Shown: positions 26,614 through 28,720 of the stretch, piece by piece
How the letters are laid out: each line of letters begins with the position of its first letter
How positions within the stretch are numbered: the first letter of the stretch is position 1
Virus record (IMG/VR): IMGVR_UViG_3300020331_000002
Strand: one strand, 5' to 3'
DNA length: 64,000 nucleotides
Source: a virus
Taxonomy: Duplodnaviria; Caudoviricetes
The notes under the pieces: model-generated
Told to the model about the DNA's origin: nothing
Databases searched by the model: none
What the model saw: the letters and a program-made list of their open reading frames with translations, nothing else
Translations under genes and position numbers: made by a program

Positions 26614-27414
26614 TTAATCACTTAAGTACAGTTCGTTTTCTAGCTCTGCTCTGTATTCTGGATCTCTAATCGCCCGTGCGTATCTGTCTGGATCATACGA
26701 ACTGACTTTACCTGCCAAATAGTACTGATGGGCTTTTATGTTTGATAACTTGCGAGTAACCTGTCCTTCACTCATTATACCGGTATGGTGATAATGTGAT
26801 TTTTCCATATACCTTAGTACATGGTCAAGTATCATCGGTGTGTACAGTATGCGGTTTCGGGTTGCTGTGTGGATCAAATGTCCGAAACTAACTTCTCGTT
26901 TATGTGCATTTCCGAGTGGTCTTGAAACAGTCACATAGCGCTTTATATAAAAACTCTTGTGTAGACGATCGGTGTTGTTTTTTACTATGGTTTCATATGC
27001 ACATTGCATGAGGTTCGCAAAAAACTTGGCGCGATCGCCGGCCACGCCGTAATACGGGCCGTCAAGTCTTATCACCTTTTTCGACATGAACTGGAAAAAC
27101 TCATGCTCTTCTAGTAATAAGTACTCACCGACGTGACAGTAATATGGTATTCCTATTCCCATCTTCGCTATAGAAGCGAGAGCATTAGCTGTCTTTACCA
27201 TTTCTTTAGGACTAGGAATATAACCGTCACATACGGCGCTAAGGTCTAGGTCCGGTGTACACAATGAAGTGCCTAGCCGCATTGCTTGCCAATGTTGGTG
27301 ATTGCTACCCGACGAATAGTAGTCGAAACCAGTCAGTGATCCAGGCCTACATAACCGAGCTTTCGCTAGGTCTATGTCGATACCGACTTTCTCGAAAAGT
27401 TCACGATATGTCAT
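26614..27414 (-). CDS. hypothetical protein
   Basis: ORF track. Confidence 0.6.
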   Translation of the reverse strand: MTYRELFEKVGIDIDLAKARLCRPGSLTGFDYYSSGSNHQHWQAMRLGTSLCTPDLDLSAVCDGYIPSPKEMVKTANALASIAKMGIGIPYYCHVGEYLLLEEHEFFQFMSKKVIRLDGPYYGVAGDRAKFFANLMQCAYETIVKNNTDRLHKSFYIKRYVTVSRPLGNAHKREVSFGHLIHTATRNRILYTPMILDHVLRYMEKSHYHHTGIMSEGQVTRKLSNIKAHQYYLAGKVSSYDPDRYARAIRDPEYRAELENELYLSD

Positions 27415-27452
27415 GCATTACACTCTGTTATGAATAGCTTGGCTAAAAACAC

Positions 27453-27611
27453 TTAGCAAAATGCCTTTAGCCAAGAATCTTCACGACCCTTGTGTTTGCG
27501 CTTTCTGTTATACTTGGTAGCGTCTTCTTCAACACGCTTCCTAAACATCGGAGTTCTTACCACTTGTTTAATGGCGCTTGGTTGGCTATGTTTAACTTTC
27601 TTCTTGCCCAT
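27453..27611 (-). CDS. arfA: ArfA-like alternative ribosome rescue factor, 52 aa (not in ORF track)
   Basis: MGKKKVKHSQPSAIKQVVRTPMFRKRVEEDATKYNRKRKHKGREDSWLKAFC aligns by eye to the ArfA AI…PLFRQRVE…Y.RK.KH pattern; GGAGG RBS; stop codon lies in a 15-bp hairpin. Confidence 0.7.
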   Translation of the reverse strand: MGKKKVKHSQPSAIKQVVRTPMFRKRVEEDATKYNRKRKHKGREDSWLKAFC

Positions 27612-27653
27612 AATTTCCTCCTGGCGTTAGAAGAGGGCATTGTATTAATGCCC

Positions 27654-27929
27654 TTACATTAGAACTGGTATGATCATCAAAGTCAACATCAAAGCGTAGA
27701 AAATTATCCGTAGGTAGATATTAGTCTTGTGCTTGAATGCCTCGAACCTTTCCAGATACTCGGCCACTTTGCGTGCTGACGGCAGTGCTAGTAACACCGC
27801 AATAATACCCACAAAAGCTTCTAGATACACCGTTAGCACTACGGCAGCGATACAGAGTACCACAACAATAATGCCGTGGCCTATACAGTCTACGGTTTCT
27901 TCGTCTAAGTCGCTGAATAAATGATTCAT
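27654..27929 (-). CDS. small membrane protein
   Basis: Multiple hydrophobic segments. Confidence 0.6.
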   Translation of the reverse strand: MNHLFSDLDEETVDCIGHGIIVVVLCIAAVVLTVYLEAFVGIIAVLLALPSARKVAEYLERFEAFKHKTNIYLRIIFYALMLTLMIIPVLM

Positions 27930-28058: not shown

Positions 28059-28388
28059 TCACTCCATCGGCGGCACGGTTATTTTTCCTTGAAACGCAAG
28101 TAGAGCAATGGTTTCTGGCTCTATCTTAACAAACGTTTCACGGGTTTTATTAGACGCCCGGTTAGAGTGGCTAGGGGTACCAACTCGCACAGATGATCCT
28201 ATCCACATAGAAGCGCCGGAGGCAGTAGGCTTTTTGATGCGGCCCAGCTTTAAACCCGACGACTTGTAAACACTCACAGCAACTATGTCGCCTGCACGTA
28301 TTTCATTTCCGAGACAGTCAGTCCCTACTTCATCTGATGTATCTGACATAAGTTCCTCAACTTTTTGGCGATATGATTTTTGCGTCAT
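28059..28388 (-). CDS. hypothetical protein
   Basis: ORF track. Confidence 0.6.
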   Translation of the reverse strand: MTQKSYRQKVEELMSDTSDEVGTDCLGNEIRAGDIVAVSVYKSSGLKLGRIKKPTASGASMWIGSSVRVGTPSHSNRASNKTRETFVKIEPETIALLAFQGKITVPPME

Positions 28389-28720
28389 TACTCTTCTTTA
28401 AGATTCAGGAGGACAGGAGTGTCAAACCCGCCTCGTATTTCTCTCTTGTACTTACGCTTATCTTCAATGCCGGTCTCAGAAACCTTACCAATTTTGATAA
28501 TTGCTGCCAAAACTTCAAACACGTCGGCTAGCTCTTCTTCAAGCGCGTCAGTATCACCGCGATAAATTTCAGCCAGAACTTCTTCGACTTCTTCGTGCGC
28601 TTTGTCACATAGTAAGGCAAGGTGATCTTGAGTGGTAAGCTTGTCTACTGGAAGTAGAGGTAGTGGGTCAGATGCAATATCGGGGATTTTATCCCTGATC
28701 AATTTATGCGGGTATTTCAT
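28388..28720 (-). CDS. MazG-like / PRA-PH family nucleoside triphosphate pyrophosphohydrolase
   Basis: KLIRDKIP, EEVEE, EELADVFEV, KREIRGGF. Confidence 0.85.
   Translation of the reverse strand: MKYPHKLIRDKIPDIASDPLPLLPVDKLTTQDHLALLCDKAHEEVEEVLAEIYRGDTDALEEELADVFEVLAAIIKIGKVSETGIEDKRKYKREIRGGFDTPVLLNLKEE

Follow-up and report, generated by a model that had tools for sequence, protein, structure and literature searches.

An ArfA-like gene with a hairpin at its stop codon in a marine jumbo phage: a candidate ribosome-rescue factor

Introduction

ArfA (YhdL; Pfam PF03889) is a bacterial peptide by which ribosomes stuck on broken messages are set free; it occurs in E. coli and in further gamma- and betaproteobacteria. 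In E. coli ArfA, F25 and the strand Q27-E30 dock the release factor RF2, the "KH" motif at K44-H45 lies in the mRNA channel, and the N-terminus and the RF2-contact elements are ordered only on the ribosome with RF2 (review PMC8012679). According to the same review, the substitution A18T abolishes RF2 activation by steric hindrance (PMC8012679). The mature peptide comprises 52-55 amino acids (PMC6299226).

Several phage genes already bear the name ArfA. These include ATN93434 of Pseudoalteromonas phage J2-1, g10 of Citromicrobium phage RXM (excerpt of PMC8953757) and gp30 of pelagiphage HTVC027P, an ArfA homologue that was reported to be transcribed during infection (excerpt of PMC12753301). 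Phage ArfA genes are thus not new as annotations. The excerpts of the RXM and HTVC027P papers discuss neither a hairpin nor a stop-less message (PMC8953757; PMC12753301), and a literature search returned neither a functional test of a phage ArfA copy nor any treatment of the hairpin design in phages.

Here, an ArfA-like gene is described from a stretch of 64,000 nucleotides (hereafter the window), which is the minus strand of bases 22685-86684 in a 310,672-bp IMG/VR virus record. The record is of marine origin and carries direct terminal repeats, which identifies it as a jumbo phage. The gene is best explained as that of a phage-borne ArfA-type rescue factor whose 3' hairpin corresponds to the regulatory hairpin of arfA, a reading that the sequence comparisons below favour with moderate confidence.

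Sequence data and searches

Approximately 130 family loci were gathered from IMG/VR and from cultured phages. The family was first collected by a word-seeded profile search and then by a full HMMER scan. The whole-family alignment was too diverse for a locus scan and sub-alignments were used instead. Pattern scans of IMG/VR and of metagenomes returned only two DNA relatives of the window, both near-identical to it.

The gene and its genomic setting

A first-pass annotation of the present DNA had claimed a basic ORF of 52 amino acids, and this was confirmed; the coordinates of the ORF, of its strong Shine-Dalgarno sequence and of the surrounding features are collected in Table 1. The encoded peptide is strongly basic, with 17 lysine or arginine residues against five aspartate or glutamate residues. 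The gene had further been called unannotated, which is correct as far as a name is concerned; the exact peptide has nevertheless been recorded by gene callers on 118 contigs, always nameless. The contigs that bear the peptide come from marine samples, Tara being among the sources.

Table 1. Features at and around the ArfA-like gene (positions are those of the window)
Feature	Position	Strand	Description
ArfA-like (DUF7230-type) ORF	27453..27611	-	52 aa plus TAA stop at 27455-27453
Shine-Dalgarno AGGAGG	27617..27622	-	5 nt upstream of ATG; read from sequence
Main hairpin	27438..27475	-	17 consecutive pairs, loop UGCU; spans codons 46-52, TAA and a further 15 nt
Extended helix	27430..27484	-	main stem, small internal loop and 5 outer pairs, about 22 bp in total; no U-tract after it
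Hairpin loop, polymorphic site among relatives	27455..27458	-	4 nt
Downstream gene	26614..27414	-	266 aa, co-oriented, no family match; starts 23 nt past the main hairpin
Upstream gene	27654..27929	-	91 aa, hydrophobic, co-oriented; DUF2975 match below threshold
Small hairpin	27635..27653	-	7 bp, between the stop of the upstream gene and the Shine-Dalgarno sequence; read from sequence
MazG-type nucleotide pyrophosphohydrolase domain protein	28388-28720	-	110 aa, about 1 kb upstream of the ArfA-like gene
Cluster of 17 tRNA genes	42588-63311	-	about 15 kb upstream of the ArfA-like gene, co-oriented with it
Protein of 1,037 aa	4632-7745	+	

All neighbours of the ORF are co-oriented with it, and the nearest ones lack an informative family except for the MazG-like gene. 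The phage genome contains 23 tRNA genes, 17 of which form the cluster listed in Table 1. When the 1,037-aa protein was searched by tblastn against 50,697 cultured-phage records, nothing matched at E 1e-5, so that the phage represents a jumbo lineage without a cultured relative in that collection; a megablast search against the cultured-phage collection found nothing either.

Homology to ArfA and extent of the family

In a Pfam scan, the 52-aa peptide matched DUF7230 (PF23876; E 4.9e-5, 23.8 bits against a cut-off of 27) and ArfA (PF03889; E 0.0029, 17.5 bits against a gathering cut-off of 25.5). Both matches lie under the cut-off, and no further Pfam family and no NCBIfam entry was matched. 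Among PHROGs, the matches were solely to families of unknown function, the ESM Atlas contributed nothing but DUF7230, and Pfam lists DUF7230 itself as a family of unknown function. When the peptide was compared by phmmer with all PDB sequences, all six matches were ArfA chains, residues 10-47 being aligned to ArfA 12-51. On aligning 118 family members with 41 enterobacterial ArfAs by hhalign, a probability of 94.6% was obtained (P 6.5e-8, score 37.6, 38 columns). As controls, 60 column-shuffled ArfA alignments scored at most 13.3 and a reversed alignment 9.0. These values are far lower, and hence the basic composition of the peptide does not explain the match. The ArfA-like core claimed in the first-pass annotation is therefore real. 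The comparison with an ArfA profile that it had proposed falls short of the Pfam gathering score and reveals, at the level of profiles, a homology that is specific to ArfA.

The wider family gave a consistent picture. Out of 38 diverse members scanned singly against Pfam, 35 matched DUF7230 and nine matched ArfA (best E 3.9e-8), apart from which there were stray weak matches. A profile built from 38 members retrieved 1,296 cluster representatives at E <= 0.001 in an HMMER scan of 1.84 billion representatives; among them was a read-through allele of the window peptide itself (P0004; 68 bits, E 3.9e-14). The family consensus reads N-P-I-A-K-A-x-R-T-P-x-F-x-x-x-V-x-x-D-x-T-K-Y-x-R-K. DUF7230 is thus a large and mostly viral family, a few members of which have already been named ArfA by NCBI or JGI pipelines. 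Judged by these alignments, it is very likely a divergent branch of the ArfA superfamily to which the window peptide belongs.

A chance open frame that is not expressed would fit the shortness and lysine-richness of the ORF and the two sub-threshold Pfam scores, but it is exceedingly improbable in view of the Shine-Dalgarno sequence, the orientation shared with all neighbours, the recovery of the read-through allele from so large a protein collection, and the pattern of variation. On comparing the window with its 306.5-kb relative L005, it was found that the sole substitution across the 51 shared codons is synonymous, and the remaining alleles differ by at most one residue within those codons. 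The 52-codon ORF is a real gene.

Members of the family also occur in cultured phages and in bacterial chromosomes. In at least 55 records of cultured T4-like Acinetobacter phages, a DUF7230/ArfA-like mini-gene adjoins rIIA; it is annotated as hypothetical, and in phage 133 it is not called at all. A 36-aa peptide of the same type (P0075; loci L151-L156, Pelagibacterales) appears to be chromosomal in SAR11. Among 101 sampled genomes of Pelagibacterales, 46 carry one match at E <= 0.001 (best 5e-14), many of these matches being marginal and the peptide being lysine-rich. A tblastn search with the SAR11 peptide against phages found nothing, possibly owing to low-complexity masking. A survey from 2024 reported arfA in none of 2,376 Alphaproteobacteria (PMC11633108). 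Judging from these matches, DUF7230 may be an unrecognised rescue factor in SAR11.

Functional features kept and lost

When the peptide is aligned with E. coli ArfA, several features of the latter are found again. F23 and K25-R26-V27-E28 align with F25 and Q27-E30, and no other part of the family is as well conserved as this RF2-docking segment. The KH motif is kept as K39-H40, and 10 of the residues 33-43 are lysine, arginine or histidine, so that the C-terminal tail is basic as in ArfA. A tryptophan follows the basic tail in both peptides, and the length of 52 residues is that of mature ArfA.

Two features are missing. The KGKGS motif, which belongs to the tail entering the mRNA channel, is absent, the alignment having a three-residue gap at that place; the family member P0091 retains a KGKAS version. 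The position aligned with A18 is occupied by Gln16 in the window peptide and by lysine in most of the family, and not by a small residue. Because of these two differences, the activation of the release factor may differ from that by E. coli ArfA, and this is the main reason for caution regarding the mechanism.

The bulky residue at the very position where A18T stops RF2 activation, together with the missing KGKGS, would also suit a peptide that binds the ribosome or RF2 without rescue, for instance an A18T-like dead end that blocks host rescue or tmRNA entry, or else a basic RNA-binding peptide of a general kind that has a different role. A literature search on the name DUF7230 gave no functional test, in keeping with the Pfam entry, and so leaves room for such a role. 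Conservation argues the other way, since the docking segment is what the family keeps best, and a distribution over 1,296 cluster representatives and nearly half of the sampled SAR11 genomes fits a benefit of the housekeeping type better than an inhibitor. A non-rescuing binder is therefore considered improbable.

The 3' hairpin

The end of the gene is folded into a long stem (Table 1). RNAfold gave -30 kcal/mol for the 81 nt of positions 27420-27500 (minus strand), with z = -5.3, and none of 200 shuffled sequences folded as well. The stop codon had been placed within the hairpin loop by the first-pass annotation, which is nearly exact: the first base of TAA is the last base of the loop, and the other two are the first two bases of the 3' arm.

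When stems were counted throughout the 310,672-bp genome, just one longer uninterrupted stem was found on the same strand (24 bp) and one on the other (18 bp), the 17-bp stem being the second-longest on its strand. With so few longer stems, the hairpin counts as rare for this genome, and a repeated or generic intergenic element was ruled out on this ground. The longest perfect hairpin of the genome (24-bp stem, 4-nt loop) lies at G000:C1:22419-22470, just outside the window and near the tRNA region. A consensus scan called neither a promoter nor a terminator at the gene, and a search of Rfam around the hairpin gave no match. An intrinsic terminator was likewise rejected, because the U-tract is missing and the scan calls none.

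The 3' part of E. coli arfA, taken from the K-12 record, was folded for comparison. Its main stem begins at the codon for W51, with four outer pairs just before it. The main stem of the window begins 2 nt before the codon for W47, the residue that aligns with W51. Both hairpins are thus located at the same point of their gene and are similar in total length; the 3' hairpin of the phage gene sits at a position equivalent to that of the E. coli arfA regulatory hairpin.

Allelic variation at the hairpin loop

The 52-aa form is the commonest allele, and four read-through variants of 64 aa were found on 41, 5, 2 and 1 contigs (49 in total). L005 and a 307-kb metagenome contig (L150) are 99% identical to the window in this region. 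In both, the loop contains one extra base and two substitutions, by which TAA is lost and the frame is shifted through the 3' arm. Their reading frame continues for 12 more codons past the loop position into a hydrophobic tail. All 64-aa alleles bear this 13-residue tail, which the window allele lacks. A hairpin followed by read-through into a hydrophobic tail is the same layout as in bacterial arfA.

Between the window and L005, there are about six differences in about 320 nt, three of which are clustered in the loop; both arms are identical. The sole arm substitution among the alleles is K49R, which would change an A-U pair into G-U if it arose by a single AAG-to-AGG change, the codon being deduced from the protein. 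Since the window and its relatives are 99% identical, they offer no real test of covariation in the hairpin. The frameshifting loop indel persists at high frequency, which fits the idea that ribosomes seldom translate past the hairpin loop. What the window itself adds to the subject is a pair of natural alleles, one having a stop in the loop and one lacking it.

Hairpins in other members of the family

Comparable designs were found elsewhere in the family. In Acinetobacter phage Morttis (L003, CPT_Morttis_003), the ORF itself contains an 18-bp hairpin with a T-run, ahead of its stop codon. Including Morttis, seven loci (the others being L007, L026, L030, L032, L045 and L092) have, well ahead of the stop, a strong or T-run, terminator-like hairpin with a hydrophobic tail after it, and their stems are mutually unrelated in sequence. 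At L047 (IMGVR_UViG_3300036770_003300), a TAA stop is placed in the loop of a 9-bp hairpin, as in the window. In the 100 nt that follow the KY motif, 10 of 30 non-redundant loci carry a stem of 9 bp or more, against about 14% expected from the same loci (P 0.005). Most members have a plain stop with no hairpin nearby, which holds for the abundant marine groups as well as for the J2-1 gene annotated as ArfA, and in several T4-like Acinetobacter phages a hairpin coincides with the stop or follows it closely, as an ordinary terminator would. From these sequences, the putative stop-less design is recurrent in DUF7230 but not universal.

These data bear on the question whether the hairpin has anything to do with tmRNA sensing. 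If the rescue factor were real and the peptide were made constitutively from a normal stop, the hairpin might be an intercistronic processing site or a 3' stabiliser acting as a barrier to exonucleases. The prevalence of the in-frame TAA allele, the plain stops of most members, the terminator-like hairpins of the Acinetobacter phages and the start of the next gene just past the stem would all suit this. Against it stands the start of the stem at the codon aligned with that of E. coli arfA. An in-frame hairpin with a hydrophobic tail, as seen in the close relatives and at no fewer than seven other loci belonging to diverse phages, is an unusual layout for an ordinary terminator; the common loop indel also speaks for a sequence that is rarely translated past the loop. 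A hairpin for processing or stabilisation is hence regarded as a somewhat unlikely explanation.

Proposed mode of action

Going by its homology, the peptide is probably a rescue factor of the ArfA type, which in infected cells would recycle ribosomes that have stalled on truncated messages. Where a ribosome has stalled at the 3' end of such a message and its mRNA channel is empty, the basic C-terminal half of the peptide (KY-RKRKHK) would enter that channel, and the conserved segment preceding it (P-M-F-R-K-R-V-E) would dock the RF2 of the host. The docked RF2 would then release the peptide, and the ribosome would be freed for phage translation. No tmRNA gene, no RF-1-domain protein (release factor) and no RNase III were found in the phage genome, and all three, including any enzyme that cuts the hairpin, would need to be supplied by the host.

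By analogy with arfA, it may tentatively be proposed, at somewhat less than even confidence, that the hairpin makes the message stop-less and so ties expression to the saturation of tmRNA. A double-strand RNase of the host would cut the 5' arm of the hairpin, giving a message without a stop codon. The peptide made from it would be tagged and destroyed by way of tmRNA, and would accumulate only when tmRNA is saturated. An uncut message of the window allele would end at the TAA of the loop and give a tail-less peptide of mature-ArfA size; from a read-through allele, it would give the 64-aa form with its hydrophobic tail. As the uncut message of the window allele would yield a peptide of mature size, the arrangement would be leaky by design, and as this allele has a normal stop, neither the stop-less message nor the tmRNA sensor can be obligatory for it. 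The first-pass annotation had assumed that the phage keeps the sensor logic of arfA. The homology, the equivalent position of the hairpin and the read-through relatives agree with that assumption, but an obligatory stop-less message does not agree with the normal stop of the window allele and the lack of a hairpin in most members.

A stricter version of this scheme, which appears unlikely, is that the full arfA sensor has been kept and that cutting is so efficient that the sequence past the loop escapes selection. The peptide would then be made only when the tmRNA of the host is overwhelmed, as could follow from RNA cleavage driven by the phage or by a defence system, and the gene would be a conditional counter-measure to immunity that targets translation. 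Cutting of such efficiency would explain how a frameshifting loop indel that decides between stop and read-through persists at high frequency in ocean populations. The purpose suggested in the first-pass annotation, rescue after anti-phage cleavage by the host, is speculation.

Should the peptide act in the manner of ArfA, large phages would be equipped with a back-up factor of their own for ribosome rescue, and this process would join tRNAs among the translation functions supplied by phages. Some phage lineages would, if the proposal is true, use the bacterial style of self-limiting control by a stop-less message, and DUF7230, with at least 1,296 cluster representatives, would gain a testable function. 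The cultured Acinetobacter phages with a homologue next to rIIA provide tractable systems.

Comparison with known systems

BrfA of B. subtilis and ArfT of Francisella are small and basic, like the proposed phage factor, and likewise bring release factors to non-stop ribosomes; no sequence relationship of the window peptide to either was detected. In brfA, a terminator before the stop brings about control by tmRNA, which resembles the control proposed here. ArfT differs in that it is not regulated via a stop-less message and can use RF1 (PMC6299226).

The genes of J2-1, RXM and HTVC027P share with the present one that they encode small basic phage peptides named ArfA by homology. The J2-1 peptide is the best match among cultured phages, with 50% identity; its gene differs in that it lacks a strong hairpin and ends in a plain stop, which overlaps the start of the following gene. 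With DUF7230 at large, the window peptide has the consensus and the small size in common, although its N-terminal half (S-A-I-K-Q-V-V) is nearer to canonical ArfA (N-A-I-E-A-L-L) than to the family consensus.

E. coli ArfA differs from the phage peptide in that the latter is phage-encoded, scores below the Pfam cut-off, has the three-residue gap in place of KGKGS and glutamine at A18, and ends, in the window allele, at a stop in the hairpin loop. The likeness consists in profile-level homology over residues 7-44, in the F-R-x-R-V-E segment for RF2 docking, the KH motif, the tryptophan after the basic tail and the mature size, and at the level of the gene, in a hairpin of about 22 bp that starts from the aligned tryptophan codon and is followed, in the read-through alleles, by a hydrophobic tail.
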